DNA of 64,000 nucleotides from Planctomycetota bacterium (GTDB lineage: Bacteria > Planctomycetota > SZUA-567 > H5-PLA8): NCBI GenBank assembly GCA_037129555.1, contig JBAXUS010000003.1, positions 3,786 to 67,785 on the forward strand, read 5' to 3'. Positions 12,631-29,294 of the stretch are shown here, in pieces. A model generated the notes under the pieces. That model saw only the letters and a program-made list of their open reading frames with translations, had not been told where the DNA came from and made no database searches. A program made the translations under genes and the position numbers. The stretch's first letter is position 1. Each line of letters begins with the position of its first letter.

Positions 12631-14496
12631 ATGGCATCGGGCATCGGCATTGACATCGGTAACGACTCCATCAAAATCGTGCGCGTCTCCGTATCGCGGG
12701 GGAAGGTTGCGGTTACGGGCGCGATGAAAATTCCGCGCAATTCTCCAGCGTTGGGCGCCGACGCGACTCAACCGGAAAAAGCTGGCTCTGACGGCAAGCC
12801 AGAGAAGAAGAGTGGCGACGCGTTTTTTGTTCCTACTGCGCTTGGAGCACTGATTAAAAGCGCTGGATTTGCTACGACGGGAACGGTCGGTGTCACTGGC
12901 CGTGAAGTCAACATCCGCTACTTGAGCGTTCCGCCCGTTCCGCCTGACAAATTGCGCATGCTTTTGAACATGGAACTGGCCGGCAAGCTCACGGGTGGAA
13001 AGATTCAGGACGACGTGCCGGCGGTCACGTACGACTGGCGCATTTTAAATGTCAGCGGCGGATTGAAGAGCGATCTGACGATCATGGCCGGGATCGCGAA
13101 GAACGATTTTCTGCTCGGCGCCCACGCGTTGTTGAAGAAAGCATCCATCGCTGCTGAAACGCTGACGCCGTCCGCGTTCGGATTGGTCAATGCGTATCTC
13201 AGCACTCAGACACCGCCGCCGGGCGAAACCGTCGTGCTCTGCGATGTGGGCCACGACTTGCTTGAAATTGCAGTCATCGAAGACCGCAGCGTTCTCTTTG
13301 CCCGCAGTGCCGCTGGGGGCGGAAAGAAGTTTAATCTTTCGCTCGATAAAGTGCTGCAAACCGGCTCCGAACGCGCGGCGGTTTTCAAGCATGATCGCGC
13401 CCGGATTTATCCGGAAGGTGCGGAGATGCGCAGCAAGCAGGACGAGAATTTCCAGCCCGCTTTGCGCGAAGGGGCCGACGCCATCGCTGCCGCGATTCGC
13501 TCGTCGATCATGTTCTGCCGAACACAGGCGAAACTGCCGAAGCTGGACTTCACGCGTGTGTATTTATCCGGCGGTGGCGCGCGTTTGAAAGGCTTGTGCG
13601 ATTACCTGGAAAAGAAGCTCGCGCGACCCGTCCAGCCGTTGAATGTGGCTGCGGGCGTCAACCTCAGTGGCTTGCGCCCGGACTCGGCGCTGCTCTTTCA
13701 AGACGCGATTTCGGATATGTCGGTCGCGCTGGGATTGGCGGTGATCGATGCGGATCACAAAGCCGTCCACTTCGATTTCGTGCCCGAACCGATTCTCAAC
13801 CGCCGCTCATTCTGGCGCAAAACGGTGGTTGGAATTGCCGCTGGCGTGGTGCTCATCGCCGGGCTGGTGCCGCCATATTTGTACGCTCAAAAAGCGGCGG
13901 CGGAATCCGCCAGCGTCGTTGCGAAGTTTGACGAATTTCAGAAGACTGCGGACAAAGACAAGAAGGAGTACGCGAAATTCGTTGAACAAAAACGGATGCA
14001 GGCGGCGAAGGCGGATTATTATGCTCGGCAGACGCGCATGGACCGCGTGTATGTTGAATTGTTGCGCGTCGTTCGCGAATCGACGCCCAAGCGTGTGATG
14101 CTGAATTATGTCGGTCCGCCCATTGGTGAAAGCTCGGGTACCGGATTGGGTTCGTGGAAAGCGACGGATCAGCCGATTCTTGATTTCGTGATTCGTGGAT
14201 CGTACGACAAAGAAGAATACCCCGAGCAAGCCGCGCCGCCGCGCATCACGATCAATGAGGCGTGGAACGGTAAGCATGACAAGGATGACAAGATCATTGT
14301 CGAAGGCATGCGCGACAAATTGTTGAAAGTACCGGGCGTCAAAGAAGCGAATCTCGTCGCGCTGGCGGACACTGATCCCGCGCTGGGAGCCAAGCTTGAT
14401 AAGGAAGGCAAGAAACCGTTTCAGGCCACGATCAAATTGCGCGACCCGGCGACGCCGTTAAAGGCTGCGCGCGAATCGAAAGAGGCGAAGCCATAG
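12631..14496 (+). CDS. pilM: Type IV pilus assembly protein PilM (actin-like) fused to a PilN-like TM/coiled-coil/periplasmic region
   Basis: GIDIGNDSIKIV, DVGHD, VYLSGGGARLKGL and ALGLA PilM motifs, then FVPE, a TM helix, a coiled coil and a TPKRVML PilN-like segment. Confidence 0.85.
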   Translation: MASGIGIDIGNDSIKIVRVSVSRGKVAVTGAMKIPRNSPALGADATQPEKAGSDGKPEKKSGDAFFVPTALGALIKSAGFATTGTVGVTGREVNIRYLSVPPVPPDKLRMLLNMELAGKLTGGKIQDDVPAVTYDWRILNVSGGLKSDLTIMAGIAKNDFLLGAHALLKKASIAAETLTPSAFGLVNAYLSTQTPPPGETVVLCDVGHDLLEIAVIEDRSVLFARSAAGGGKKFNLSLDKVLQTGSERAAVFKHDRARIYPEGAEMRSKQDENFQPALREGADAIAAAIRSSIMFCRTQAKLPKLDFTRVYLSGGGARLKGLCDYLEKKLARPVQPLNVAAGVNLSGLRPDSALLFQDAISDMSVALGLAVIDADHKAVHFDFVPEPILNRRSFWRKTVVGIAAGVVLIAGLVPPYLYAQKAAAESASVVAKFDEFQKTADKDKKEYAKFVEQKRMQAAKADYYARQTRMDRVYVELLRVVRESTPKRVMLNYVGPPIGESSGTGLGSWKATDQPILDFVIRGSYDKEEYPEQAAPPRITINEAWNGKHDKDDKIIVEGMRDKLLKVPGVKEANLVALADTDPALGAKLDKEGKKPFQATIKLRDPATPLKAARESKEAKP

Positions 14497-14719: not shown

Positions 14720-14778
14720 GTACTGCAAGGGAATTTGAACCGTAATTGGGGCTGCATTGCACTAGAATTGGAACCGTT

Positions 14779-15822
14779 ATGTTTTTTGAAAAAAATAAAA
14801 ACCTTATGATCGCGACCGGTGCTGTGGCGCTGCTGTGGGTGATTTTGTTTTACACGCTCGTCGCCCCGAGTTGGGAGCAGGCTCAGGCGGCTCAGGAGGC
14901 GGCTCAAGCTAAACGCAAAGCGTGGGAAGCGTCCACGAATGCGGAGAAGGAACGCAAAGAAGCCAAGGAAGACAAGCGCAAGAACGAGTTCAAAATCCGC
15001 AAGGAAGCTGAAGCGGATTTGACGCGTGCCAGCGAAGTGATCGATGTGAAATCGAAAGAGTTGCGAAAAATTGAATTCGGAACCAAGGACTCGCTGCGGT
15101 CGTTCAGCGTGGCATCCGTCGGTAAGAACGGCGACACGAAGAATCTGCTGAACGAGAAATTGAAGCAGACGAAGGACCGCGCGAACGCGATAGTTCGCGT
15201 GAAGCTTGAGGCTGAAAAGCTGTCAGTTCGCTTTGGTGAGGACACGACGAGCGACGCGTTGAATTTATTGCGACTCGCGATGGTGGACCGCTTTTTGACC
15301 GCGTGCAAAGACGTCAAAGATCCCAGCACAAAGGACTGCAAGATCGAAGAGATCGCAGGCCTCGATTACTACAAACCTGAAATCATCCAACTCCCGGATG
15401 CTGAGAAGACGAAGGAAAAAACCAGCGACGAAGAAGAGGTCGCCGAAACGAAAAAACCGAAGGCAAAGGGGAAGGATAAAGATAAGGAAAAGGATGCGGA
15501 CAAAGCCGACGAGATTGAACGCCTCGTGGCGATTCCGATGAAGGTGCTGGTCCGCGCGCCCGAACGTTTCATGGCTCAATTGCTGTACGAATTGGGGCAG
15601 CCCACATCCGGTCGGCCCGACGGTGAAGACCGGCGCGGCTATTTCTGCGTAAAAGGGTTTCACGTTTCGGTGTCGAACGCCTCAGCCAGCACGGGTGAGA
15701 AATTGCTTGAAATGAGCGTCGCCGTTTCGGCGTTGTTGCGTGAATCGGAAATCAAAGCGCTTGGCATCACGTTAAAAAGCGACGGTCGAGGAAGCAGTCG
15801 GCGCGAAGTGGAATCTTATTAG
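14779..15822 (+). CDS. PilO/GspM-like membrane-anchored coiled-coil protein
   Basis: N-terminal TM helix, long coiled coil, C-terminal ferredoxin-like pattern (IPMKVLVRA…LLYEL…FCVKGFHV…LEMSVAV); position after pilMN. ATG 14779 chosen. Confidence 0.6.
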   Translation: MFFEKNKNLMIATGAVALLWVILFYTLVAPSWEQAQAAQEAAQAKRKAWEASTNAEKERKEAKEDKRKNEFKIRKEAEADLTRASEVIDVKSKELRKIEFGTKDSLRSFSVASVGKNGDTKNLLNEKLKQTKDRANAIVRVKLEAEKLSVRFGEDTTSDALNLLRLAMVDRFLTACKDVKDPSTKDCKIEEIAGLDYYKPEIIQLPDAEKTKEKTSDEEEVAETKKPKAKGKDKDKEKDADKADEIERLVAIPMKVLVRAPERFMAQLLYELGQPTSGRPDGEDRRGYFCVKGFHVSVSNASASTGEKLLEMSVAVSALLRESEIKALGITLKSDGRGSSRREVESY

Positions 15823-16300: not shown

Positions 16301-16350
16301 TTTCACGCAGTGCGGCGCTTCATTTTTACGTCTCAAACTTAGTGGTTATT

Positions 16351-18753
16351 ATGAATCCAATCGCTCCCCCACCCTTCTGTGTCTTCTGCCCCCGCTTTTG
16401 CAGCCTCGCCGTCGCGTTGTGCTGGGTGCTGGCCGGGAGCGTTGGGACGTCGTGTTTTGCGCTGGACGATGATTCTGATTTCAATGTGCTCAAAGAAGAC
16501 ACCATTATTCTGAAGAGCGGCGAAAAGCTACTGGGCCGGATTACGGAGCAAGACGACGGCAGCTACCAGTTCAATGGCGGACGATTTGCCCGGACGCTGC
16601 AGAAAAGTGAAATCAGCGTCGTTCGCAAGAAGGCCACGAAAGAAGAAGAGTTGGATCGACTGGCGAAAAAGTATGCCAGCGACGGGCCCAATATGCTGCG
16701 CATCGCCACGAAGGCGACGACGCGTTTCAATCTCAACGCGCGCGTGATTCCGATTCTCGAACGCTTCGTCGCGGCGCGCAATGATGAGGGCTGTTCGCAG
16801 TTGCTGGGTTCGCTGTATTTGAATGCGGATCAGGCCGACAAGGCGCTGCGCATTGGTGAAAAGCTGGTGGATCGCGATCCGAAAAAGCCGCGCAATTTGA
16901 TGCTGCGCGGCAAAGCGCTCGCGATGCTGAACAAAGTCGAAGCGGCTGAGAAAGATTTGACGACGGCTTACAAACTCGCGCCCCAGGACGACGAGATTGT
17001 GCTGGCGTATGCTGATTTGCAATTGCGTTTGGGCAAGGCGGACGCTGCAAAGAAGATCTTCACTGATGTGATCGCGTCCAATTCGCGCAACGCGTCGGCG
17101 CTGTCGGGGCTGGGGTTTGTTCAGATTCGGACGGGTGAATTTCCGGCGGCTGAGCAGTCGTTTCAAAAGGCGCTGGAAATCAACTCGGAATTCCGCAACG
17201 CGCTGATCGGCCTGGCTACGGCGGAGATGATGAACAAGCGCTACGACGACGCGTTCGCGGATAGCAATCGCATTTTGAATCTCGACAACAACTGCGCCGA
17301 AGCGTTGCAGATTCAAGCCATGGCGTTGATCTACAAAGGTGACCCGGCGTCGCTCGCGAAGGTGGACGACAAGAATTACATCAAAGACTCGCTCGAAGCC
17401 AAACCGAATCAGCCGCGCTTGCTGTTGGCTTGGGCTGCGATGCTGGATCGGCAGGCGAAATTTGACGAGATGAGAACGTCGAAGGATAAAGATCCGAATG
17501 GCGGTGCCGGGTTACCCAAAAAGCTCGCGGCGACGCAGAAGTTGAACGAGGTTCTCAACAGTGATGCGGCGGACAGCTACATCCAGTATTTCATTGGAGA
17601 ACGTCGCTTCCGTGAGGCTGAGGAAGCCAAGCGCCGCAACGAACCGGCTGTTGTCGAAACCGCGTTGGGTAAAGCGGAGGACGCGTACAAGCGCGCGGCC
17701 AAACTCAGTCCGAGCTACGCGCCTGCCAATGGTGCGCTGGGCGCGACGTTGTTGCGGCGGAAGAAATATGACGAAGCGAAAGCTGCGTTCGCCAAAGCGA
17801 TTGAATGCGATTCGACGTCGCAGGATGCAGCCGATTATTTTGCCGGCCAGGGTCTCGCACTGCTGCAATCGCGGAACTTTGAACAAGCGTCCGCGCTATT
17901 TAAAAAGGCACTCGCTCTGGATCCGACAAACGCTCCGGCGCATTGCGGTCGTGGCTACATTGCCAATTGGGAACGCGACAAGGATCGTGCAATTGATGGC
18001 TTCCAAAAGGCGCTCGCGTCCGACGGTGATTGCGCTTATGCAGCGAATGCGTTGCAGCAGATTTATAAGCAGGACGACCGCGAAATGGAGTACGTGCATT
18101 TCTCGGGCAGCGAATGGCCCCAGGGTTGGAAGCCGTTCAATCCGGGGCAATTGAAATTCGTGTTGAGCAACGGGCAGGCTGCGATTATTGGAACGCAAGG
18201 TCAGGCGCAGGGCACGCGGTTGGACCTCGCGCGGCAGTTTGCTCCGGCGTCGAAATTCGAACGGCTCGAAGCCGATTTGAACATCTCACCGAACACGCCA
18301 GCTGAATTTGGATTGCGTGTCGCGTCGGGCACTGGACCATCGCCTGCGTTTGAACTTCAGTTCGGAAAAGACGCGAGCAACGAGCTAAAAGTCTGGGTGC
18401 GAGACAGTTCGATTATGAATCCGGAATGGAAGACGACGGGCAAGGAATGGCCGGCGTCCGGGCGCGTTCGTTTGGGAATTGAAACGGAAGGGTTCACGCC
18501 GACTGAAGGCCTGTGCAAAGTGATCGTGAACGGTGTCACCATTGGGCGCGTACCGTTGAAATTCCAAGCGGTTCCAAAGACGTTGTCGATGGGTGTTTTC
18601 TTGATCGCCACGCCGAACGCGGCCATTAACGCGACGATCAATAACATTGCCATCGTGAAACGCGGCGCTTCGGATACGATGAAAGACAACACGGGCGACG
18701 TGAAATTTATCGCTGAACCTGACAAGCCTGAGAAGACAGACGAGAAGAAATAA
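16351..18753 (+). CDS. Exported tetratricopeptide repeat protein with C-terminal ConA-like beta-sandwich
   Basis: Signal-like N-terminus, small beta domain (DTIILKSGEKLLGRI), many TPR units (ALSGLG…AEQSFQKALEIN; FKKALALDPTNAPAH), beta-rich C-terminus. Confidence 0.85.
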   Translation: MNPIAPPPFCVFCPRFCSLAVALCWVLAGSVGTSCFALDDDSDFNVLKEDTIILKSGEKLLGRITEQDDGSYQFNGGRFARTLQKSEISVVRKKATKEEELDRLAKKYASDGPNMLRIATKATTRFNLNARVIPILERFVAARNDEGCSQLLGSLYLNADQADKALRIGEKLVDRDPKKPRNLMLRGKALAMLNKVEAAEKDLTTAYKLAPQDDEIVLAYADLQLRLGKADAAKKIFTDVIASNSRNASALSGLGFVQIRTGEFPAAEQSFQKALEINSEFRNALIGLATAEMMNKRYDDAFADSNRILNLDNNCAEALQIQAMALIYKGDPASLAKVDDKNYIKDSLEAKPNQPRLLLAWAAMLDRQAKFDEMRTSKDKDPNGGAGLPKKLAATQKLNEVLNSDAADSYIQYFIGERRFREAEEAKRRNEPAVVETALGKAEDAYKRAAKLSPSYAPANGALGATLLRRKKYDEAKAAFAKAIECDSTSQDAADYFAGQGLALLQSRNFEQASALFKKALALDPTNAPAHCGRGYIANWERDKDRAIDGFQKALASDGDCAYAANALQQIYKQDDREMEYVHFSGSEWPQGWKPFNPGQLKFVLSNGQAAIIGTQGQAQGTRLDLARQFAPASKFERLEADLNISPNTPAEFGLRVASGTGPSPAFELQFGKDASNELKVWVRDSSIMNPEWKTTGKEWPASGRVRLGIETEGFTPTEGLCKVIVNGVTIGRVPLKFQAVPKTLSMGVFLIATPNAAINATINNIAIVKRGASDTMKDNTGDVKFIAEPDKPEKTDEKK

Positions 18754-18762
18754 GCGGAACGT

Positions 18763-18784
18763 GCCGGCGAGACGCCGGCGGTAC
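18763..18784 (-). repeat. GTAC-type REP palindrome
   Basis: Reverse complement GTACCGCCGGCGTCTCGCCGGC; stem GCCGGCG/CGCCGGC. Only one copy seen in the window. Confidence 0.5.
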
Positions 18785-18810
18785 AGGGTCTTTTTGGAGC
18801 TCGAAAACAC

Positions 18811-19311
18811 ATGCGCAGGACGCCCTCAGGATTCACGTTGCTGGAATTGCTCGTGGTCATCACGATCATCGCTATTTTGGGCGCGGCGATCATGGCGTCC
18901 ATGGGCGCGATTCAGCGCAATACGCGCGTCAATTTGACTAAGACGCAGTTCCAATTGCTGAAATCCGCGCTGGATCGCTACGTCGGTGATTTTGATGATT
19001 ACCCGCCTTCTGAGGGCGACGCCTTGAAGGGGGCGCAGAGTCTTTTCGCGTGTTTGACGACCACGAAAAAAGGCGGGCCGTATATTCAGGCCGGCGACAT
19101 CCCGACTGTGGATCCGACCGGCAACGGCGACACGGCGTTCGCGGATCAGTTCAAGCATCCTATTTATTACCTGCACCACCGCGACTACCACAATCAAGTT
19201 CCGAACAAGCACGATTTCCGATTGATCTCGTGGGGTCCGAACGGGCGCTACGAAGATGGTGATCGCAACAGCGACGACATTGTGAATTGGAACAAAGACA
19301 AGCCGGAGTAA
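18811..19311 (+). CDS. gspG: GspG-like major (pseudo)pilin
   Basis: Prepilin site G|FTLLELLVVITII; ALDRY…DYP, DQFKHPIYY, LISWGPNG…DDIVNW T2SSG-type C-terminus. Confidence 0.8.
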   Translation: MRRTPSGFTLLELLVVITIIAILGAAIMASMGAIQRNTRVNLTKTQFQLLKSALDRYVGDFDDYPPSEGDALKGAQSLFACLTTTKKGGPYIQAGDIPTVDPTGNGDTAFADQFKHPIYYLHHRDYHNQVPNKHDFRLISWGPNGRYEDGDRNSDDIVNWNKDKPE

Positions 19312-19314
19312 GCC

Positions 19315-20442
19315 ATGTCCGTCGGCCCTCGACATTCGATGATTCACGCGGCTCGACCGGTACGACATGACATCGCCCCGGGGCGCGGTGTCACGCTGCT
19401 TGAAATGATCGTCGTCATCGGCTTGATCACGCTGCTGCTCGGAATGGGCGTTGGCTCGTACATTGCGATGTCGAAGAGTTACAAAGAAGAAGGTGCGGCG
19501 TCGCAGATTGATGTGATTCTGCGGCAGGTCCGGAATTCAGCGATTGGATCGCAATCGCCTGCGTGGGTCGAGATTAATACGGAGACTCGTCGCATCACGC
19601 CGTGGGCGTCGCGGACTGTTGCGCTGTGGCATTTTGAAGATTGCGACGATTTCAATCACACCACCGGCTCCCGGCATAATGCTGTGTTGCGCGGCGCCAA
19701 GCATGATCGCAACGGCAAGATCGGAAAGTGTGCGCGACTGGCTCCCGGAAATTATGTGGATGGCGGCAACGATCCGGATTTTGATCTTGAAGACGGTGGC
19801 TACATCGAAGCCTATATACGTCCGCTCTCGGGCGATTTCACTGGCGATAATTTCATCTTCTCCAAAGACGGCGCGTTCTCGTTAAAGATCGGCAAGAAGG
19901 GTGTGCTGATCGGTGAGATTTCTGGCGACGGAAAACGACCGCTGACGAAAGTGTTCAGCAAGACATATAGAATTGCGCCGGGGCGCTGGACGAAAGTGGC
20001 GTTTGCGTGGGACCGGAATGTGACGCGCGTCATGGCTGATGATTTGGTGCTCGCGACCGGTCCGGGCGCGACGCCGCCGGTCAATTCGAACTCGTTTATT
20101 GTGGGCAGCGAATCGTCGAGTTTTGAAGGGTTGGTCGATGAAGTGCGCGTCCAAGCGGCCATTGCTGGGAACAAACTGGAAGTCAATCCAACCGTGACGA
20201 TCACGCATAACACGGCCCCGTGGAACGCCATTTATTTTGGGAGCGACGGTGCGCTGGATATGCGGTTCCACGGCGGTCCGGTCCGTATCACGCTTGAAAG
20301 CGAAGGGCGTATTCGGGGCGTTGCAGTCGATATGTTTGGCACACCGACACGACTTGAATTGAAGAAAAAAGGTGAGGTGGACGAGTCTGAATCAACTCCT
20401 GAACCTGAGCCGAAACCGAAAGCGAAGGCGGTGAAACCATGA
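19315..20442 (+). CDS. GspH/FimT-like minor pilin with inserted LamG domain
   Basis: G|VTLLEMIVVI; ILRQVRNSAI; LamG motifs ALWHFE, IEAYIRP, WTKVAFAWD, FEGLVDEVRV; GspH-like end IYFGSDG…VAVDMFG. Confidence 0.8.
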   Translation: MSVGPRHSMIHAARPVRHDIAPGRGVTLLEMIVVIGLITLLLGMGVGSYIAMSKSYKEEGAASQIDVILRQVRNSAIGSQSPAWVEINTETRRITPWASRTVALWHFEDCDDFNHTTGSRHNAVLRGAKHDRNGKIGKCARLAPGNYVDGGNDPDFDLEDGGYIEAYIRPLSGDFTGDNFIFSKDGAFSLKIGKKGVLIGEISGDGKRPLTKVFSKTYRIAPGRWTKVAFAWDRNVTRVMADDLVLATGPGATPPVNSNSFIVGSESSSFEGLVDEVRVQAAIAGNKLEVNPTVTITHNTAPWNAIYFGSDGALDMRFHGGPVRITLESEGRIRGVAVDMFGTPTRLELKKKGEVDESESTPEPEPKPKAKAVKP

Positions 20443-23400
20443 TGCGCGAAATCCGATATGTGCGTCCGCGCGGTGTGGCCATTTTGATGGTCATCGCGGT
20501 GCTGGCTGCGCTGCTGGCCATTGTGACGCCGTTTGTGTTTTCGATGCTGCAGCACGGTAAATCAGCGCGCAACGACGCCAGCCAACAGATCGCCCGAGAA
20601 GGCTCGGAAGCCTCGATTCAACACGCGCTCGCCGACCGGCAGCGCAAGGACCTCGCGTTTTTTGGGACGCACAACGCTTCTGAACTCAACGTGGATCTTC
20701 CGCCTGAAGTCACGACGCCGAAAGACTTGCTCGTTGACATGGGCATCACGATTTCGGACGACATGATTTCGAAGTACAAACTCGATACGAATTTTCAGAA
20801 TCCGCGCGGGATGATGTGGTCGGCGAAGATGGAGGACGAGCAGGGCAAGATTAATGTGAACTCGGCTCCGCCTGCTTTGATCGGGAATTTGCTTGCGTCG
20901 GCGCTGTTGACCGAGAGCGTGCAAAAAGGCGAGACGTCGCTTTCGGTGGATGATGCCAGCGAATTCAATCCGACCGGTGGCATCATTTGCATGAATGGCG
21001 AGCGCGCGCCACTGCATTATTCGAGCGCCAGCCGGGGCAGTATTCAGCTGGATCAAGCACTCGAATTTTCGCATGGCGTTGGGACGCTGATTTTTGATGG
21101 ACGAGGGCGCTTGATCAGCAATGGTACGATGCCCAGTGGCCCGGCGTTCGCGCCATACCGATCGAATTTTGAAATCAAGACAGCTCCAGGATTGACGGCT
21201 GAAAACGCGTTGCCCCCGGAGGATTTTGCGCGGATCGAACGGCATATCACGGTCGAAAACGGGATGGGCAATCCGACGTGGGGACACGGCGAGCGGATCG
21301 GCGACGCGAGTCTGTCGGGCGACATGTCCGGCGTGGGATTGAAGAACGGCCAGGGCTACAGTCCCGGCACGCTCGTCCGCATCGTGACCAACGGTAACGC
21401 GACGGGTTTTGGCCGCGTCCTCTCCATTAAAATGAAAGAGGACGGCAGCGCGAATGTTGAATTCGAGCAACCGATTGGCGGCGGTGGCGACGAAACGACT
21501 GTCGGCGGGACGTATGTTGAACCGCAGATGAAACATCCGGTGAACATTAATACGGCATCGGACGAAGTGCTGGCGGCGGTGTTCACCGGCGTCTGCGCGC
21601 GGGGCAGCAAGACGGCGGTGCCGAAGAGTATCGCCATCGCGCTGGTTGATTATTTGCGCGGGCGGACGCCGGGACTGGGGACGGGCGGACGGCGTGTGTT
21701 TACGACGGCGGAGGATATTCGCAAAGCGATTTACCGCGCGTTTGAGGCCGGGATTATTACGCTGCCGATGCGCGACGCGCTGGCGATCAACGCGACGGAG
21801 CCGAACAGTTCGCGGTTGAGTTTGTGCACGGTTCCGTTCATTTGTCATTCGCACGGCAGCTACACGATTGAAGGGTCAGGCGTGGCGAATGCGGACACGG
21901 GGATGCAGTTGGCGCGGCACACGGTCCGGGAATTGGTCACGGTTCCGACGCCGTTGCCGGGGCGATACCGCATCAATTGGCAGGCTGGATTCCAGACGCT
22001 GATCGATCAAGGTATGTCGTCCCGAGTCGCCACGTTTCCGGAAGTGTTGGGCACTCATCGTTTCCGGAAGGGCGCTCCGCTAGACCGCTTTCCGCGTGTG
22101 GATACCGGGAATGTGCGGTTGACTGTGGGTGAAAGCGGCTCGCTCAAGGGGCGCTCCAGTGTCACCGACGAATATCTCAATCATTGCGACGATGAAACGG
22201 ATTCACGCTTCAAGCAAGAAGGTTATGACATCAGTAAAGGTTCGGCGTTCGTGCTGGATCCGGTGCAGGCCACCGGTGCGCGCGGAAATGGTTTTCGCGG
22301 AGTCGCGACGCCGGCCACGTCGTGCGAATTGTGGTTCCGTCCGAAAGGTGGCGGGCAGTGCACGTTCTATGATGAAGGCTTGGCGGACGACCGTAACCGC
22401 GTCAATTTTTCGTACGATCCCAGCGAAGGCGGGCTTGTGATCCGCATTTGGGATTCGACGTTGCCGAGCGATAAATTCAAACACGTGGTCGAATTCGTTT
22501 ATCCGATCACGTTGAATTCGGGCGACTGGTACCACGTCGCCGGATCGTGGAAGACGAGTCATCCGGGCGGGCAGGAAATCCGCGTCGATGCGCAGCCGTT
22601 TCCGCAAAACAATCCGAAGTTGCTGCAATTCAAACCGGGTGGCCGGCTTGGTGATGATCTGGGATTGACGAGCGATCCGAGCGACACGATTTCGTTATCC
22701 GATGGTGACGGAAAAGATTTTCCGAAGGCTGGGGCGTTGAAGATCGGTGAAGAAATTATTGAGTATACGTCGAACAGCGGCGGGTCGTTCTCGGGGTTGT
22801 ACCGTGGCGCGCGCATGAGTGCGGTGATTAAACACAAAGCGGGCGAATGGGTCGTGCCGTTTGGTTTCGTCAACAATACGTCCCAGGATTTGGTTGTTGG
22901 AAATGCGAAACTGGTTGAGGATTTTCCATCCGTCGGCAAGACACACACAAAAGTTCAATTCGCTCCGAACGCGAAGCCGAATTTTGTTTTGGATACGGCA
23001 GTGGATAAAATCCCGGTTGAAGACGCGAGCGATTTTCCGCCATCGGGATTTGTGACGTGCGCGGGTGAGTGTATTTTTTACGGATCAAAAAAGAAGGGTG
23101 CGAATGGCACGTGGGAATTGAATAAATTGCAACGCGCTGAGAGTAGCGCAGGCCAAACCGCGCCTGCGCGCAATCTGCACAACGGCCAAGGTATTTCGCT
23201 GTGCAGCGTCGCGATTTCGAACAGCAACGACTATGACATTCCCGGCATCATCCAGCTTGATGACGAAAACAATCCGAAGAAAGTTGAATGGGTGTATTAC
23301 GCGGACAAGCGCGACATGAATGGAAAGCATTTTTTGGTCGCTCAATTGGCGCATGGCACACCCGGCACGATTCAAAATGGGAATCCTGAAATTCCGAAAA

Positions 23401-25100
23401 CCAACCAGCCCAATGTCCACATTTATCAATTTCGACACGTCTTCGGCATCGGGGATTATTTGTATTTAGGCGTGGCGAAAGGTACGACCAGTTCACACGC
23501 CAAATCGGCGAAAGTGATTCCGGTCATTCGCATGAGCGCGGCGCATTGTGGCGGCTGGGATCCTTCTGCTGTCGGTGATCCCAACGCGGTCCCTGTGGCG
23601 GGTTCCAATCCCGCAGCTGCTGCGAATACCGATATAAAACTGATTCATGATTCTCCCTATGGAGCGGACGGTGTCAGCGAAGTTTCGATTGTCGAGCAAG
23701 GCAAACAGGATGGCGATTTGCGCTGGGTCAAGCAAGCGTATATGCATCAGTATTCGAACTCAAACGGTCAGCCGTGCCCGCAATTGCGATTCACAGGTTG
23801 GAGTTTTGATTTTTACGTCGGCTTGAACGATTTTGTCTCGCGGCGTTATCCGTCCAACACGACGCGCTTTTTGCGTTGGCCGACGGGCGAATTGCCGGAT
23901 GCGGTCAACGCCAAACGCAATGTGTGTCAGGACCGGAATGGTGACGGTAAAGTCAACGGGGATGTGGACGAAATTCGCGTGAACACGTTCAACTCGATTG
24001 GCGGACGCATCGCGATGACGTTGGAAGCTGAACCGCTTGATGCCAGTGCGACTGAAATTCTGGTTGAAAACTACGACGCGTGGGCTGCGCCGGGTGCGCG
24101 TGGGCAAAATGTTGGAGGCGGCGGACAATCGAATCCGTTGAACTGGCCGACCAATGGAAGCTTGGCGCGCATTGAAGATGAGTTGATTTACTTCACGACC
24201 GTGAGTTCCGCGCAACTGACGTATTACGCGGACACCTATCCGCCTTTGAAGGACAAGCCGCCGGAGAGAAATAAAGCTGACCGACGCTGGATCAATCCCT
24301 GCACGACCGTTCACGAACTGCATCCGAACATCGTCACGAAAACGGTCTCGAAATTGACCAACGTAAAACGCGGTGTTTTGAATACGAAAGCGAGCGAGCA
24401 TCCTGTCGGCGCACAGATCATGGTGCTCGATGCGATGGCGGTGAGCCATTTGTCCGGATCATACGGCGCGATGGCGGACTCGTTTAGCGTCGCGGATGCT
24501 CACGGATTTCCGAAAGAAGGATACGCGTTGATTAATGATGAAGTCGTGTCGTGGAAAAAGATGAACGGGACGTCGTTCACCGGTACGCAATATTTCCGGG
24601 GGCGGTTTGGGACGTCGGCGAGTGATCATGAGAAGGATGATATTGTGCGCTGCCTGCCGTTCCGGTATTGGGATCGGAATGCGTCGGGGTACGATGGGGA
24701 TGGATTGGCGTTTATTCAATCCGGGTATCGCGCTGCGAGTGGGAAATGGTTTGGCTACGAATTGAATTTGATGGGCACGGAGGAGTTGCCGCAGGTTCCA
24801 AACGGGGTCAGTCCGCATGTGCTGGTGCGTTTTGATGGTAAGCCGGGATGGGACGCGGATGTCACGAATCGCGAGGGCGGGTTGTTTGAATTCACGGGCA
24901 AACGCGTGATGCGATTCTCGGGGACTCAGGGCATCAAAGCGGATCAGATGGAAGTGCGCGTGATGTGGAAGTACATGCCCAGCGCGTTTAATAAGGGCAA
25001 TGGAATGGATTGGAAACGCACGTTCTCGATTGAAAAAATGCGCGCGCGGTATGAGTCGCCGTTGATCATGCGGCGGTTGGATGAGGTGGAGAAACGGTGA
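20439..25100 (+). CDS. Giant GspK/PilX-like minor pilin with split LamG domain and repeated phage-virion-like modules
   Basis: G|VAILMVIAVL (no Glu5, as in GspK/PilX); DEQGKINVN and VNINTASDEVL GspK motifs; ATGA overlap with the upstream gene. Confidence 0.8.
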   Translation: MMREIRYVRPRGVAILMVIAVLAALLAIVTPFVFSMLQHGKSARNDASQQIAREGSEASIQHALADRQRKDLAFFGTHNASELNVDLPPEVTTPKDLLVDMGITISDDMISKYKLDTNFQNPRGMMWSAKMEDEQGKINVNSAPPALIGNLLASALLTESVQKGETSLSVDDASEFNPTGGIICMNGERAPLHYSSASRGSIQLDQALEFSHGVGTLIFDGRGRLISNGTMPSGPAFAPYRSNFEIKTAPGLTAENALPPEDFARIERHITVENGMGNPTWGHGERIGDASLSGDMSGVGLKNGQGYSPGTLVRIVTNGNATGFGRVLSIKMKEDGSANVEFEQPIGGGGDETTVGGTYVEPQMKHPVNINTASDEVLAAVFTGVCARGSKTAVPKSIAIALVDYLRGRTPGLGTGGRRVFTTAEDIRKAIYRAFEAGIITLPMRDALAINATEPNSSRLSLCTVPFICHSHGSYTIEGSGVANADTGMQLARHTVRELVTVPTPLPGRYRINWQAGFQTLIDQGMSSRVATFPEVLGTHRFRKGAPLDRFPRVDTGNVRLTVGESGSLKGRSSVTDEYLNHCDDETDSRFKQEGYDISKGSAFVLDPVQATGARGNGFRGVATPATSCELWFRPKGGGQCTFYDEGLADDRNRVNFSYDPSEGGLVIRIWDSTLPSDKFKHVVEFVYPITLNSGDWYHVAGSWKTSHPGGQEIRVDAQPFPQNNPKLLQFKPGGRLGDDLGLTSDPSDTISLSDGDGKDFPKAGALKIGEEIIEYTSNSGGSFSGLYRGARMSAVIKHKAGEWVVPFGFVNNTSQDLVVGNAKLVEDFPSVGKTHTKVQFAPNAKPNFVLDTAVDKIPVEDASDFPPSGFVTCAGECIFYGSKKKGANGTWELNKLQRAESSAGQTAPARNLHNGQGISLCSVAISNSNDYDIPGIIQLDDENNPKKVEWVYYADKRDMNGKHFLVAQLAHGTPGTIQNGNPEIPKTNQPNVHIYQFRHVFGIGDYLYLGVAKGTTSSHAKSAKVIPVIRMSAAHCGGWDPSAVGDPNAVPVAGSNPAAAANTDIKLIHDSPYGADGVSEVSIVEQGKQDGDLRWVKQAYMHQYSNSNGQPCPQLRFTGWSFDFYVGLNDFVSRRYPSNTTRFLRWPTGELPDAVNAKRNVCQDRNGDGKVNGDVDEIRVNTFNSIGGRIAMTLEAEPLDASATEILVENYDAWAAPGARGQNVGGGGQSNPLNWPTNGSLARIEDELIYFTTVSSAQLTYYADTYPPLKDKPPERNKADRRWINPCTTVHELHPNIVTKTVSKLTNVKRGVLNTKASEHPVGAQIMVLDAMAVSHLSGSYGAMADSFSVADAHGFPKEGYALINDEVVSWKKMNGTSFTGTQYFRGRFGTSASDHEKDDIVRCLPFRYWDRNASGYDGDGLAFIQSGYRAASGKWFGYELNLMGTEELPQVPNGVSPHVLVRFDGKPGWDADVTNREGGLFEFTGKRVMRFSGTQGIKADQMEVRVMWKYMPSAFNKGNGMDWKRTFSIEKMRARYESPLIMRRLDEVEKR

Positions 25101-25216
25101 GTGAGCATTTGTCTCTCGCAAAGGCGCAAAGACGCAAAGAAAAGCAAACGAGAGGGAGTGAAGAGGGATTGGATCCTACCTTGGGTGCACGATGTGAATG
25201 TGTGGGAATGGGAGTG

Positions 25217-25318
25217 TCGCCGCTGACGCGGCTAGGACGCTTCGGTCTCGGATCCGTGGCCTTGTTCGCTTCGCTCACTACGACCACGGCTACTTGAACT
25301 TGCCGCCACTCCGTGGCT
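25217..25318. repeat. Composite REP-like element (three hairpin units) in the gspK-gspJ gap
   Basis: CGCCGCTGACGCGGCT … CCGTGG…CCACGG … GCCACTCCGTGGC; architecture like the right arm of 14522-14719 and like 47815-47913. Confidence 0.55.
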
Positions 25319-25450
25319 TAGGATAGGAAAATGTGGTTCGAGACACTACAGGTAGTGGTTGGACGCATCGGGACGCCGTGCACATGTGCATGTTTGGGAA
25401 CGTGAATTCGATTTAGAGACTTGAAAGCAGACGCTTTGTTGATGCCGTTG

Positions 25451-26665
25451 ATGACCACTTACTCGTTGAAGCAACCGCGCAACGTCCGCACCGGGCTTTC
25501 GTTGATCGAAGTCGTGGTGTCGCTTGGCATTTTTGTGATGCTGGCGGCGTTCATGTTTTTGGCGGTGAAGGAAGTGGTGGGGTCGTGGAAAGTGAGTGAG
25601 CGGCGGCGGGCATTGTATGAAAAAGCAGCCGGCGTCGTGGATATTCTGGCTGACGATATTCGCGTTGCGGCGACGCTTGAACCGGTCGGCGCGACGGACG
25701 TGAAATGCAAGTTCATCAGCGATTTTACGGGCGATTCGGCGAATCCGAAGCAGCAGCGGCTGATGTTTGTTCGCACATTTGAAGCGGGGCCTGAACGCGC
25801 GATGGTTGGCAACGCGGGCGGCGGTCGAGCGAACAGCGCTGTCTTCCGTGCACCCGGCGACACCAGCGACCCGCAAAACGACGGGCCGATGGCTCCTGGC
25901 AACGCCAGCTACGACGGCTTGAAAACCGGAGATTTCAAAGCGCTCGGCGGCATGGCGATGATCGCTTATTTTGTGAAAGACAAGACTCTATATCGAGGGA
26001 TCAAGGCGCCGGTGGAAGGGCCGCTCACGGCGATCGCCACGCCCGGCGCGTCGCAGGCCATCGCTACGGACGTGCTGTATTTGGGTTTCGATTACTGGGG
26101 CCAGGACACGCAGGATTGGGACGATCCGCCTGCGCGTGATGTCACGAAGAACACGGGCCCGCACCGGATTTGGGATTCGACGCGCGGCATCACGGCGACG
26201 CCGTTGAACCACTTTTTTCTGCACCGCCCGGGTTCGCTCGACGATTCTGCCGACGATGTTTTTCCGCGTAAAGTCCGGGTGACGGTGGTCGTCGATTCGC
26301 CGATGCCGCGCTGCGTTCACACGAGGTTGCTGGATAATATTGGTGATGGCGATACGACGATTGACGTCGATGATGTGCGCGGATTTGCGGATGGCGACGA
26401 CGAGGATTCGTATCTGTTGATCGACGATGAGTGGATGCACTTTACGAAGCGGGAGGATGGGGTTTTTCATGTCGATAAACGCGGCGCCCGCAACACCCCT
26501 CCGCGCGAACACAAACGCGGCGCTACGGTTCGGACAGGCAAGGTCTTTCAACGCGTCGTTTTCATTCCAAACTGGCGCGAGGATTTTATGAGCGACGAGG
26601 ACTATCAAGCGAAAAAAGACGCTCAGACGATCCAGCCCAAACGTATTTTGAAGCCCGTGAAGTGA
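25451..26665 (+). CDS. GspJ/PilW-like minor pilin with one phage-virion-like module
   Basis: G|LSLIEVVVSL; ILADDIR; IAYFV…LYR; DVLYLGFDYW; FPRKVRVTV. ATG 25451 chosen over TTG 25421. Confidence 0.8.
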   Translation: MTTYSLKQPRNVRTGLSLIEVVVSLGIFVMLAAFMFLAVKEVVGSWKVSERRRALYEKAAGVVDILADDIRVAATLEPVGATDVKCKFISDFTGDSANPKQQRLMFVRTFEAGPERAMVGNAGGGRANSAVFRAPGDTSDPQNDGPMAPGNASYDGLKTGDFKALGGMAMIAYFVKDKTLYRGIKAPVEGPLTAIATPGASQAIATDVLYLGFDYWGQDTQDWDDPPARDVTKNTGPHRIWDSTRGITATPLNHFFLHRPGSLDDSADDVFPRKVRVTVVVDSPMPRCVHTRLLDNIGDGDTTIDVDDVRGFADGDDEDSYLLIDDEWMHFTKREDGVFHVDKRGARNTPPREHKRGATVRTGKVFQRVVFIPNWREDFMSDEDYQAKKDAQTIQPKRILKPVK

Positions 26666-26688
26666 GCGAACCAGGAGCAACTGCTCGA

Positions 26689-27111
26689 ATGAAAGTGGTA
26701 ACGGCACGACCCGCGCGCGGCATGACGCTCATTGAGTTGCTGATTTCGATCGGCATTCTGATGGGCGGCATGGTTTGCATCTTTGCGTTTCTGCTCTCGG
26801 GAACGAGCAGCCACCGGCGCGCGATCAAGGAGACGGAGGCGACGATGATCGCGGCGTCGGCCATGGCCGATCTGCGTGGCGATTTCGCGGCGGGCACGAT
26901 TCCGCGCAGTGACGGGACGACGTATATGGAAGTGAAAAACAAACCGGGATACACGTTGAATCGGGTCATTCTGTGCGTCGATCCCATCAAAGCCGAGAAG
27001 CGCGAATTCTTTGTTCGCATCCGAGTGCGCTGGTCCGAAAAAGGCGACAATCAATTCATCGAATTCAGTTCGGTGATGTGCAGCGGTAAACCGAAAGTGC
27101 TTGAACCGTAA
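26689..27111 (+). CDS. GspI/PilV-like minor pilin
   Basis: G|MTLIELLISI; VRIRVRW C-terminal strand; SD AGGAG before ATG 26689 (alternative GTG 26662 overlaps the upstream stop). Confidence 0.8.
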   Translation: MKVVTARPARGMTLIELLISIGILMGGMVCIFAFLLSGTSSHRRAIKETEATMIAASAMADLRGDFAAGTIPRSDGTTYMEVKNKPGYTLNRVILCVDPIKAEKREFFVRIRVRWSEKGDNQFIEFSSVMCSGKPKVLEP

Positions 27112-27123
27112 ACGGTCGATTCG

Positions 27124-29226
27124 TTATTCCTGGGAGCGTAAGACGACGTTGTCCAACGCGCAGGCGCATTGGCGGGCGCGGAAGGTGATCGTGCCTTTTA
27201 GTTTGGCGATGCCGGGAATGGACAGCGTTCCGGCGGGCTTGCCGTCGAGTGACAACGCGACCGTGTCGCTGTCAATGGCGAGGTCCACACGGGCTTTGTC
27301 GCGCGTCCATTTGATCGCCGGGATTTTGGCGTTGGATTTGTCTTGAAGCGTGACCTCTGTCGCGTTGAAGGAGAGCACCACCGCTTGTTTTTCGCTGCCC
27401 AATTCGCAGATAAAAAACCATCCGGCCGAGGGTTTTCGGATTTCGAATTCAAAGCTGACGCGGGCGGTTTCGAGCGGGAATTCTCCGCCGATGCTCGTGG
27501 GCTTCAATGCTGTTTCGCCGCCGTCAGCGCTTTCCAAAACATACTTTCCGTCCTGGCTGAGCCAGCTGCCGGAGAGCGCTTCCCAGTCGAGTTGCTGCCG
27601 CCAGTTTTTGAAATCGTAGAGATGCAGATTTTTCGAATTCGTGAGCAGGCCGGCGAGCGTGGTGGCGAGAGGCGTGTCGCCCGGGCGTTTCAAGGCTGCC
27701 TGCGACGCTTTGCGCGCGTCGTCCTGCCGTCCCAGCACGCTCCAGAGGCAAGCGAGTTCGGCGTAGTGGTCGGACAATTCCAGCGGGTCGAGAAAACTGA
27801 TGATCTCTTTGGTGTCGAGATTTTTCAGGCTCACCGGCATTTCGATCTGGCCTTTTCCGACGCGCATTTGCGCTTGGAGACCGTTCACGCGTTGCAGCGA
27901 ACCGTCGATTTTTTTAGCGGCGTAGGACATCAGAATGAGCTCGCCGGTGGCGGCCCGCTTCGCGCGTTCGGATTCGACTTTTTCAAGGAAGCCCATCGTG
28001 ACGATCAGTTGAAATTGCAGCGTGTCGATGTCGCCGGCCCAGCGCGTTCCGGTCAATTCGCCCATGACGCTTTCGACGGCTGTGCGCGCTTGCGCCAGTT
28101 GCCCGCGCGCGACGGCGTCGAGCGCTTTAGCTTTCGCGGTGGCGGCGGCTTGAGCGGTGAGTTCGTCGATGCGTTCGAGCATCTCGCGCGCTTTTTTTCC
28201 ATACGGCCCGTTAAGGTCGTTCGAAATCAGGTTGGTGCAACGCTGCGCGACGAGGTGAAAATGGCGGGCGATCATGGCGGAGCGCGCTTGGTCGAGCGAG
28301 AGATCGAGCGCGGCGTTCGCGACTTTCGTGGTGTCGTCCAATTCGATTCGCGCGCGACGGACGCGGTCATCGTTTTCAAGACCTGCCGGGACGGACGCGA
28401 GGAACGATTGCAGCGCGGCTTTTGCTCCCAGCAAATTGCCTCCGCCCAGCGCACGGTCGCGCGCGGCTAGCGCGGATTTCAGTTGGTCGTCCAACGTGAC
28501 GCGCGGCGTTTCGGGTTTGGTTTCGACGGACTTGGGAGGCTCGGGCACTGGATCGCGTTTGGGCGGAACGGGATCGGCGATCACGACGCGCTCGGGTTCT
28601 TTTTGAGGCGCGGTGGCTTTTGCGACGGTCGGAGTTCGGGGCGCAGTGGGCGCAGGCGTCGGGGCGGGTTGAGCTTGCCAGATGATAATCCCGGCCACAG
28701 TGGCGACGAGGCCAATCAGCACCACGACCGATACGGTCGATTCAGTCCCAACAGGCATCGACTTTCGAGCGGGCCGGACGATTTTGGCAGGAGGCGTGTT
28801 CGGACGAATCGCGGCTGCGACGGCGGCGGGCGACACGTTTTTGGTCGGAGTTTCCGGAAGAAAATCGTCCGGTATGATTGCGTGGACGTCGCTGGAAACA
28901 GCAGTGAGCAAAACCTTCGTTTGCTTCAATTTTTCGGGCGAATCGTTTTCGCAATAAATGATCGTGGTCGCGCCGATGGAGATGCGGTCGTTGTGTTTCA
29001 GGTCGTGCTTGGTGATCCGGTTGCCGTTGACGAAAACACCGTTGGCGCTGTTCAAATCTTCGACCGTGGCCTGCCCGCGCGCATACTGGACGGTGCAGTG
29101 CATGCGCGACGCTTTTTCTTCGGCGAGGTGGATCGAATTGTTGACGTGCCGTCCGATGGAATGGGTGCGTTCCAATTCATATTCGCGGACAGCCAGATTC
29201 GGGCCGATGACGATCAACGTGGGCAT
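27124..29226 (-). CDS. FHA-domain membrane protein with helical region and C-terminal ConA/DUF1080-like domain
   Basis: Intact FHA motifs IGR…ASRMH…DLNSANGVFVNG; TM helix, Pro-rich linker, ends ALDNVVLR. ATG 29226 chosen. Confidence 0.88.
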   Translation of the reverse strand: MPTLIVIGPNLAVREYELERTHSIGRHVNNSIHLAEEKASRMHCTVQYARGQATVEDLNSANGVFVNGNRITKHDLKHNDRISIGATTIIYCENDSPEKLKQTKVLLTAVSSDVHAIIPDDFLPETPTKNVSPAAVAAAIRPNTPPAKIVRPARKSMPVGTESTVSVVVLIGLVATVAGIIIWQAQPAPTPAPTAPRTPTVAKATAPQKEPERVVIADPVPPKRDPVPEPPKSVETKPETPRVTLDDQLKSALAARDRALGGGNLLGAKAALQSFLASVPAGLENDDRVRRARIELDDTTKVANAALDLSLDQARSAMIARHFHLVAQRCTNLISNDLNGPYGKKAREMLERIDELTAQAAATAKAKALDAVARGQLAQARTAVESVMGELTGTRWAGDIDTLQFQLIVTMGFLEKVESERAKRAATGELILMSYAAKKIDGSLQRVNGLQAQMRVGKGQIEMPVSLKNLDTKEIISFLDPLELSDHYAELACLWSVLGRQDDARKASQAALKRPGDTPLATTLAGLLTNSKNLHLYDFKNWRQQLDWEALSGSWLSQDGKYVLESADGGETALKPTSIGGEFPLETARVSFEFEIRKPSAGWFFICELGSEKQAVVLSFNATEVTLQDKSNAKIPAIKWTRDKARVDLAIDSDTVALSLDGKPAGTLSIPGIAKLKGTITFRARQCACALDNVVLRSQE

Positions 29227-29294
29227 GACTTTTTTCCGGAGCCTTTTTGGAGCATTCGTCGGGCGATTCAATCGACTTCATTTTAAAAGATGCG

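Follow-up and report, generated by a model that had tools for sequence, protein, structure and literature searches.

Predicted phage-type beta-barrels in GspK-like and GspJ-like pseudopilins encoded by a conserved filament operon of Planctomycetota

A 64,000-nucleotide (nt) stretch of a Planctomycetota genome, hereafter the window (contig JBAXUS010000003.1 of assembly GCA_037129555.1, positions 3,786 to 67,785), contains a run of filament genes on the plus strand at 12.6-27.1 kb. Two of these genes, here named K and J, encode a giant GspK-like pseudopilin and a GspJ-like minor pseudopilin, and both proteins contain a module of about 60-80 residues that is marked by the short motifs F-P..G, E, R-G..G-T and H..G. 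Seven copies of this module were confirmed, six in K (four intact, two with insertions) and one in J, with K 923-1026 on weaker evidence than the others. The two genes and the seven copies are listed below, where paired hhalign E values refer to the two profile-profile tests described afterwards.

20439..25100, plus strand: K, giant GspK-like pseudopilin, 1553 amino acids (aa); assigned from weak hidden Markov model (HMM) matches, the N-terminus and the position between the GspH-like gene and J
20901..21104 (K 155-222), plus strand: copy 1, in the N-terminal pilin part; hhalign 7.6e-8 and 8e-11
22680..22868 (K 748-810), plus strand: copy 2, first of three nested in a laminin-G-like (LamG) domain; HMM 68 bits, hhalign 6.8e-9 and 4.5e-18
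22989..23207 (K 851-923), plus strand: copy 3; HMM 46.8 bits, hhalign 1.5e-6 and 8e-19
23205..23516 (K 923-1026), plus strand: copy 4, with an interruption of about 40 residues, weakest of the seven; halves at 1.7e-3/2.4e-7 and 0.23/1.1e-3
24006..24419 (K 1190-1327), plus strand: copy 5, with two insertions; hhalign 9.2e-6 and 1e-13
24444..24662 (K 1336-1408), plus strand: copy 6; HMM 77.6 bits, hhalign 3.8e-10 and 1.1e-20
25421..26665, plus strand: J, GspJ-like minor pseudopilin, 414 aa from a TTG, or 407 aa if from the ATG at 25442; assigned from the predicted fold
26306..26542 (J 296-374), plus strand: J copy, an insertion close to the C-terminal end of the GspJ fold; HMM 76.9 bits

The five clean copies are merely 19-29% identical in pairs, a figure that might point to chance or compositional similarity. 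An HMM built from the five intact copies matches those copies by construction, and the real test is a leave-one-out search, in which all five were recovered by an HMM of the other four (E 0.24, 0.034, 0.026, 2.9e-5 and 4.9e-6; Z=100000). In a first profile-profile test, a module profile from 94 members of the J family was run with hhalign against a profile of 34 members of the K family. It found K 1336-1405 (3.8e-10), K 735-805 (6.8e-9), K 155-222 (7.6e-8), K 851-915 (1.5e-6) and the interrupted K 1190-1327 (9.2e-6 over 74 columns), as well as co-linear half-matches at K 923-958 (1.7e-3) and K 999-1026 (0.23). The controls reached 0.16 at best with a reversed profile and 0.062 in the best of 30 column shuffles. 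The second test drew on 152 modules of proteins that belong to neither the K nor the J family, combined into an independent profile; here the four intact K copies scored 8e-11 to 1.1e-20, K 1185-1335 scored 1e-13, and K 923-957 scored 2.4e-7 with a co-linear second half at 1.1e-3, the best controls being 0.078 in 30 shuffles and 0.19 on reversal. The copies thus align significantly with one another by leave-one-out HMMs and by both profile-profile tests, and against 62 shuffled or reversed controls and the same fold predicted for two copies, chance is an extremely improbable source of the similarity.

A sequence-only reading of the window had proposed about six to eight copies, at coordinates that translate to K 156-219, 748-808, 854-921, 923-1029, 1199-1331, 1336-1406 and 288-348 and to J 300-372. 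Seven of the eight proposed copies are real, and their positions were right to within about 30 nt. The weak one at 21300-21480 (K 288-348) found no support: it gave no match in the first test, and in the second K 270-360 reached E 0.022 with a probability of 2.2%, or E 0.61 in another run, which is within the controls. Elsewhere in the same genome the module appears to be absent, as just the K and J frames matched the module HMM at E<=1 among 58,729 stop-to-stop frames of at least 60 aa. Copy 1, which is kept across the K family, has no R-G..G-T segment. Copy 4 gave feature matches in the ESM Atlas to small viral proteins at 0.91, which we take as a lead only. The first half of copy 4 (K 923-958, 23205-23312) also has a sub-threshold match (E 0.41) to ribosomal protein eL33, a small beta-barrel.

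Structure prediction indicates that the module is a six-stranded beta-barrel of the phage virion-protein type. J was modelled with AlphaFold from 59 sequences, with a predicted local distance difference test score (pLDDT) of 87.4 and a predicted template modelling score (pTM) of 0.82. The model has an N-terminal pilin helix of 54 residues (28-81) followed by a body of the GspJ/XcpW/EpsJ type, and residues 292-373 form a separate barrel. Foldseek matched the model to 9a1f_S (1.8e-5) and also to 3cfi_B, 2ret, 5vtm_W, 3nje_B and 3ci0_J (down to 1.7e-3), and structure matching with VIA gave Z 10.9-11.5 (for example, 3nje_A 11.4, 3ci0_J 11.0 and 2ret_B 10.9). The earlier view of J as GspJ-like is thus borne out by its predicted fold. 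The cut-offs of the corresponding sequence models were not reached by J, which scored 15.1 bits against TIGR01711 (gspJ; cut-off 64.85) and 17.2 bits against PF07963 (cut-off 21.2); many members of the J family do carry PF07963.

The best matches of the J barrel, after the pilins, were all phage virion chains. Five of them gave Z 9.1-10.1 with a root-mean-square deviation (rmsd) of 1.8-2.3 over 68-77 residues: 9in6_M (VP1 capsid entry; Z 10.1, rmsd 1.8 over 73 residues), 8jov_1 (GP4 portal-tail entry; Z 9.9), 8rk3_o (JBD30 baseplate; Z 9.9), 8vjh_A (Chi tail tip; Z 9.6) and 9n71_B (Mystique tail tube; Z 9.1). The chain 8jov_1 is named here just as a chain of its entry, its identity not being settled from the GP4 capsid paper (PMC9698820). 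Weaker matches included 7w1c_A, 8gtc_M (R4C, a baseplate chain of 1420 aa; Z 7.5), 8iyk_J (lambda gpJ) and the P22 I-domain. In the fold search with the K model, LamG matches dominated, and copy 6 (model residues 743-823) alone surfaced among the barrels, matching 8rk3_o (Z 9.4), 9in6_M (Z 9.2) and 8jov_1 (Z 9.1, rmsd 1.5 over 71 residues, 25% identity); copy 2 shows a five-strand pattern in that model. A shared fold with phage matches, which the sequence-only reading had set as a sign of support, was found in the two copies compared, the J module and copy 6, with the same phage chains for both. BFVD returned 50 matches at E<=1e-3, including tail and tail-fibre proteins and several over 72-80 columns with rmsd 1.1-1.7, which were assigned to the module by length alone as the table is without query ranges. 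A structure search of the ESM Atlas with J 296-378 gave nine rows, namely the J family and eight rows that were 100% viral, with template modelling scores of 0.82-0.86; T4 gp15-type proteins, an SU10 adaptor and tail proteins were among the viral rows.

Single modules are hardly visible to Pfam: none of the five window copies matched at E<=10, PF23666 included. A module profile searched against PDB sequences returned just a chance-level match to Cmr3 (E 1.8). Among PHROGs, K matched phrog_1101 (tail; 3.2e-8), phrog_4406 (virion structural; 1.1e-7) and phrog_11439 (tail fibre; 8.4e-7), and J matched phrog_11439 (5.9e-5). Overall, tail, tail-fibre, baseplate and virion families were matched at E 3e-8 to 6e-5, with the matches confined to the module and the best listed stretches lying on its copies, copy 2 of K among them. 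A profile of the five window copies was then searched against 1.84 billion representative proteins, of which 1885 matched at E<=1e-3 and 358 at E<=1e-10. The best 150 included 143 new proteins, of which 77 have a non-module segment in common with K and 66 do not. As 77 of 143 share this segment, the family of giant K-like proteins is large and diverse.

Thirty-six of the 66 proteins without the K segment were scanned with PHROGs, and 35 matched at E<=1e-10, mostly via the module. At least eight of the 36 (P0189, P0202, P0144, P0142, P0174, P0175, P0233 and P0274) also bear phage structural families outside the module; for example, phrog_4406 covers P0189 along its whole length, and P0202 and P0144 are a long tail fibre and a tailspike, respectively. 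Phage structural proteins and the window copies align in the same motif columns. The earlier suggestion of a likeness to structural proteins of tailed phages is therefore supported by PHROGs, by the profile search, which retrieved genuine phage structural proteins, and by fold matches at Z 9-10. A Pfam scan of 37 proteins without the K segment matched 14, and these comprise phage-type proteins (Peptidase_S74, Prophage_tail) as well as cellular surface proteins with DUF11, Kelch/TIG, multihaem cytochromes, FG-GAP/PA14, SdrD-B or RHS with peptidase C39. Since the module also resides in many non-phage cell-surface proteins, its capture from phage, which had been proposed as the origin of these repeats, is not established, the more so as the operon is old and phylum-wide (see below). 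Cluster-member names for ten module-bearing proteins yielded almost nothing, one being "Planctomycetes bacterium".

The sequence-only reading had also pointed out a resemblance to tail-tip proteins of gene transfer agents (GTAs), and this link holds, if indirectly. Four proteins found by the window-module profile at E 2e-21 to 2e-23 (P0187, P0192, P0193 and P0206) score 28.8-32.4 bits against PF23666 (Rcc01698_C; cut-off 27). Because these matches sit exactly on a module copy in all four, the resemblance is sound, and the fold match to the R4C baseplate chain agrees with it. Through these intermediates, sequence comparison links the module to PF23666. Rcc01698 is, according to PMC7296036, the "megatron" baseplate protein g15 of RcGTA. 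Moreover, at least four proteins (P0187, P0193, P0231 and P0247) combine a classical prepilin N-terminus with three to seven module copies. As they are unrelated to K and J outside the module, it appears to have been grafted onto pilins more than once.

The same search retrieved 16 giants, 3300-7600 aa in length, that contain up to 23 module copies (P0138-P0147, P0184, P0189, P0196, P0205, P0255 and P0275). Four of them were scanned: P0189, P0142 and P0144 look phage-structural, the latter two through tail families, and P0196 matched via the module alone. Giants with 13-23 copies would suit a model in which the barrels themselves bind ligand, K and J then forming a multivalent lectin or adhesin array of seven weak sites with the LamG domain as one more. 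The abundance of the module in phage tail fibres, tailspikes and virion proteins and in surface proteins of the DUF11, Kelch/TIG, PA14/FG-GAP and SdrD types points the same way, as does the retention of E, R-G, G-T and H in every intact copy bar copy 1. However, the same residues are conserved in phage and pilin copies whatever the context, which fits determinants of the fold better than a shared ligand, two copies tolerate insertions of at least 40 residues, and no ligand site was identified. In one solved context, domain VI of the phage JBD30 hub, the matching barrel is described as structural, with a role in "stabilising the baseplate architecture". On balance, an array of binding barrels seems unlikely, if well worth keeping in view, and we favor barrels that would serve mainly as rigid braces or spacers.

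K is far longer than E. coli GspK, which has about 325 aa, and its C-terminal 964 residues (K 590-1553) were modelled with 34 sequences (pLDDT 82.2, pTM 0.77). The model matched laminin-G, neurexin and pentraxin chains at Z 12-13.2 (2jd4_B Z 13.2, rmsd 2.6 over 142 residues; 1pz7_A Z 12.4; 1qu0_A Z 12.2). Because these alignments run from model residue 3 to residues 594-597, the LamG sandwich is predicted to be split in two. Against Pfam PF13385 it scored 19.6 bits (cut-off 27.6). The parts of the head other than the barrels are as follows.

22212..22658 (about K 592-740), plus strand: LamG lectin-like beta-sandwich, N-terminal part; Laminin_G_3 E 0.0011, under the cut-off, and fold
23679..23990 (about K 1081-1184), plus strand: LamG beta-sandwich, C-terminal part; fold alignments and a conserved D-E-x-[RK]-V strand at K 1177-1181
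24714..25097 (K 1426-1553), plus strand: C-terminal beta-rich domain; long strands in the model and invariant R1546, E1551 and R1553

Copies 2, 3 and 4 lie between the two LamG parts, and copies 5 and 6 and the beta-rich domain follow. The model suggests that this head of about 960 residues is one packed, compact body and not beads on a string. As three barrels are nested in the split LamG and the model is compact, the idea of a stalk of barrels, which the sequence-only reading had put forward, is not upheld. The extreme C-terminus of K (25040-25097, K 1535-1553) is almost invariant in the family, and its confidence was low in the model of the isolated head. It might run back to the pilin part, much as the C-terminal strands of GspK and CpaL do.

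That both neighbouring tip subunits, K and J, bear the module raises another role, in which the barrels would be docking modules that clamp J to K or bring a further partner to the tip. The invariant C-terminus of K would fit such a role, as C-terminal strands have a licensing role in the tip assembly of other filaments (PMC13533445), and so would the C-terminal "fiber-binding" domain of the RcGTA protein (residues 985-1304), which PMC7296036 gives as the fibre attachment site and whose protein lends its name to Pfam Rcc01698_C. Yet PF23666 is tied to that domain by name and position only, and no candidate partner gene is conserved beside the operon except that of a tetratricopeptide-repeat (TPR) protein. 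Prediction of a complex of K 1-560 with J 22-414 gave scores of 0.32, 0.29 and 0.16 against a mark of 0.32, which counts neither way, and the conserved gene order K-J-I alone speaks for an I-J-K tip complex. We consider docking an improbable main function, and return to the barrels as putative braces below.

The remaining genes of the run, which surround K and J, are listed next.

12631..14496, plus strand: PilM-like inner-membrane platform protein, 621 aa, 5' of the pseudopilin genes; Pfam PilM_2 E 3.2e-15
14746..15822, plus strand: possible GspM/PilO-like protein, 358 aa; weak Pfam T2SSM match (E 3.7e-4, 21.2 bits against a cut-off of 27.8)
16342..18753, plus strand: TPR-repeat protein, 803 aa, opening the conserved block; several TPR families, E down to 4e-26
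18811..19311, plus strand: GspG-like major pseudopilin, 166 aa; N_methyl E 6.8e-8 and T2SSG E 3.3e-5, both above cut-off
19315..20442, plus strand: GspH-like pseudopilin, 375 aa, that also contains a LamG domain; Laminin_G_3 E 5.8e-10, above cut-off, and weak GspH/prepilin HMM matches
26662..27111, plus strand: GspI/PilV-like minor pseudopilin, 149 aa, closing the block; weak TIGR02523, XpsI and GspI matches, N_methyl E 3.2e-4

The GspG-like protein also matches TIGR01710 at E 2.7e-13, which is under the cut-off of that family. The stop of the GspH-like gene and the start of K overlap by 4 nt, and with LamG domains in both products this one operon encodes two lectin-like domains on two different subunits.

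Family searches recovered 39 K proteins and 96 J proteins (the queries included), those with names all coming from metagenome-assembled genomes (MAGs) of Planctomycetota, and the module HMM matched 39 of 39 and 91 of 96, respectively, at the same positions. Fourteen loci were drawn from GTDB species genomes, all titled Planctomycetota MAGs, in a search with the 20 closer J rows. The order TPR-G-H-K-J-I was present in 11 of the 11 loci with full flanks, down to 28-41% identity; the TPR gene was syntenic in all 11 with a full upstream flank, and the GspI-like gene was found in 13 of the 14. Across the phylum, 301 evenly sampled genomes were searched: J-like genes (E<=1e-10) occurred in 195 genomes and 158 of 237 genera, and K-like giants (E<=1e-20) in 166 genomes and 139 of 237 genera. 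Sixteen distant loci from different families of this sample all had a J frame with the module. Just upstream of J, 12 of the 16 had a K-like frame of 1700-2360 aa with two to five detectable modules; K was absent from the locus in the other four (L015, L025, L026 and L029), and in G008, which belongs to these four, a K-like match lies about 77 kb away. PilM-like genes were also upstream in three of the 16. The operon is thus old, phylum-wide and conserved across much of Planctomycetota. Many J-like matches in other genomes contain one in-frame TGA, TAG or TAA, which may be due to matches that run into the overlapping next gene.

This conservation bears on a further explanation, namely that K and J are misread tail genes of a prophage remnant or of a recent transfer from phage to host. 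The PHROGs tail and virion matches are what such an origin would give. However, those matches cover the module alone, with no other phage structural domain found in K or J, and J combines a GspJ fold with a pilin helix. No phage genes were found among the neighbours of K and J, which are pseudopilin, PilM-like and TPR genes. Nor does composition set the region apart (G+C 0.52-0.61 against 0.53-0.62 in the flanks), and the block remains syntenic down to the low identities given above and occurs in more than half of the sampled genomes. A recent phage origin is accordingly very improbable.

We propose that the region encodes a type IV filament's cap (initiation or tip) subunits, the filament being either a pseudopilus as in type II secretion systems (T2SS) or a type IV pilus, with K and J as modular pilins that bear phage-type barrels and an adhesive head, and we give this reading a probability of about 0.6. 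K and J each consist of a pilin module and of modules not specific to type IV filaments, as modular pilins do. In the N-terminus of K, R-G precedes a hydrophobic stretch, the residue at +5 being Met and not Glu, and K-like representatives show the same pattern. In known systems, a K-type subunit without Glu5 caps the filament atop I and J. Homologues of PilK likewise lack Glu at +5 (PMC13533445). Since a Glu5-less GspK-type subunit sits at the filament tip, K would be placed at the very tip of the fibre and its head would be displayed at the fibre end, by analogy with modular pilins (PMC8179133). The LamG part may then bind a ligand, most likely a carbohydrate as judged from the fold, and the barrels would mainly keep the head together and connect it with J. 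The copies and their kinship with phage modules, the barrel and GspJ folds, the split LamG and the conserved, widespread operon are results of the analysis, whereas tip location, ligand binding, bracing and a role as an adhesin are inferred.

Several observations weigh against this proposal. The GspK assignment of K is drawn from weak HMM scores, the N-terminal sequence and gene order: K scored E 5.6e-5 and 22.8 bits against NF037980 (cut-off 130) and E 0.0048 and 17.7 bits against PF03934 (cut-off 24.2, over just 17 residues), both under the cut-off, and a K-family profile found no GspK chain among PDB sequences, the best match being eL33 at E 0.41. The compactness of the head is read from the pTM of a predicted model and not from coordinates. 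The same barrel occurs in phage fibres, spikes and capsid proteins, where it possibly has a binding role in place of a bracing one. Finally, the contig contains no ATPase, secretin or platform gene besides the PilM-like one; on other contigs of the genome (7.18 Mb in 599 contigs, 91% complete) there are 14 T2SSE and five secretin matches.

Among the closest known systems are the modular pilins, of which more than 1,200 were surveyed and which include PilB (vWA module) and PilC (ConA-like lectin module) of S. sanguinis (PMC8179133). Like K and J, these have an N-terminal pilin part and extra modules that are presumably displayed at the tip, and lectin-type modules are among the commonest additions. 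In contrast to them, the carriers in the window are GspK- and GspJ-like cap subunits, the module is spread in seven copies over two subunits with three nested in a lectin domain, and it falls below Pfam thresholds. Because Pfam hardly sees the module, surveys of modular pilins by domain database would miss it.

The locus also resembles the GspK-GspI-GspJ tip complex of the T2SS with its GspH (3ci0, 5vtm and 2ret) in the order G-H-K-J-I, in the fold of J (Z about 11) and in a K without Glu at +5. It differs in that K is several-fold larger owing to its head, in the insertion of an 80-residue barrel into J, in the failure to reach the cut-offs of the curated GspJ and GspK HMMs, and in the absence of a linked T2SS ATPase or secretin on the contig. 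With the hub and tail-tip proteins of phages and GTAs (JBD30 gp53 domain VI, 8rk3; Chi, 8vjh; R4C, 8gtc; lambda gpJ, 8iyk), K and J share a six-stranded barrel (Z 6.4-9.9) and its motif, and in those proteins, the RcGTA megatron g15 included, the barrel is likewise an accessory domain of a larger protein, either as an insertion or as an appendage. Unlike them, K and J have no other hub, fibre or baseplate domain and belong to a chromosomal pilin operon that is conserved in the phylum. A large adhesive body on a minor-pilin tip complex is also known from PilY1/PilC of type IVa pili and from CpaL of Caulobacter Tad pili, the latter being, like K, a pilin-like protein with a large non-pilin body (PMC13533445). 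PilY1 differs from K as a separate non-pilin protein with a beta-propeller, and no propeller or vWA domain was found in K or J.

Each of these parts (modular pilins, the T2SS tip, the phage barrel and adhesins of the PilY1/CpaL type) is known, and their combination is not. In the literature searched, mostly without subscription journals, we found no account of GspK- or GspJ-like subunits with phage-type barrels, of giant GspK-like proteins in planctomycetes or of PF23666. The earlier remark that nothing of the kind had been described in pilins stands in this sense, modular pilins as a class being known (PMC8179133). The present analysis adds a definition of the module and the number of its copies, connects it with Rcc01698_C and with solved phage barrels, and documents the nesting in LamG, the copy in J and the tallies across the phylum. 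The new functions of type IV filaments largely depend on what the tip carries, and in this phylum a cap subunit that includes its own head of about 960 residues is encoded by more than half of the sampled genomes. The module ties pilus tips to phage tail tips via a shared, mobile building block, and its 1885-protein profile defines a large, poorly annotated domain family of phage and cell-surface proteins. The K head is a testable candidate for the ligand-binding end of planctomycete fibres. A bolder model, which we hold to be a long shot, is that a retractile fibre bears the K-J(-I-H) cap at its tip as a capture device akin to a phage baseplate, a rigid head made of a lectin domain that phage-type barrels brace, with which cells would catch polysaccharides or other cells and reel them to the envelope. 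If so, it would provide a molecular identity for the dextran-binding, pili-like fibres on cultured Planctomycetes (PMC5394234), and pilus tips and phage tail tips would draw on one construction kit.

As to the start of J, an identical database protein of 407 aa begins at the ATG at 25442. A terminator-like hairpin lies at 25484-25496, inside the start of J, and a promoter and terminator scan of 18500-27600 gave counts that were not above those in shuffled sequences. The spacer between K and J (25101-25420) is 320 nt long and has no listed open reading frame. The genes flanking K and J encode pilins and PilM-like, TPR and FHA proteins, LpxC, a kinase and similar products. Two large proteins with N-terminal domains of the FHA/YscD-cytoplasmic type are encoded on the minus strand, one of 1964 aa at 54275-60169 and one of 715 aa at 27124-29271, the latter directly downstream of the operon and on the opposite strand.

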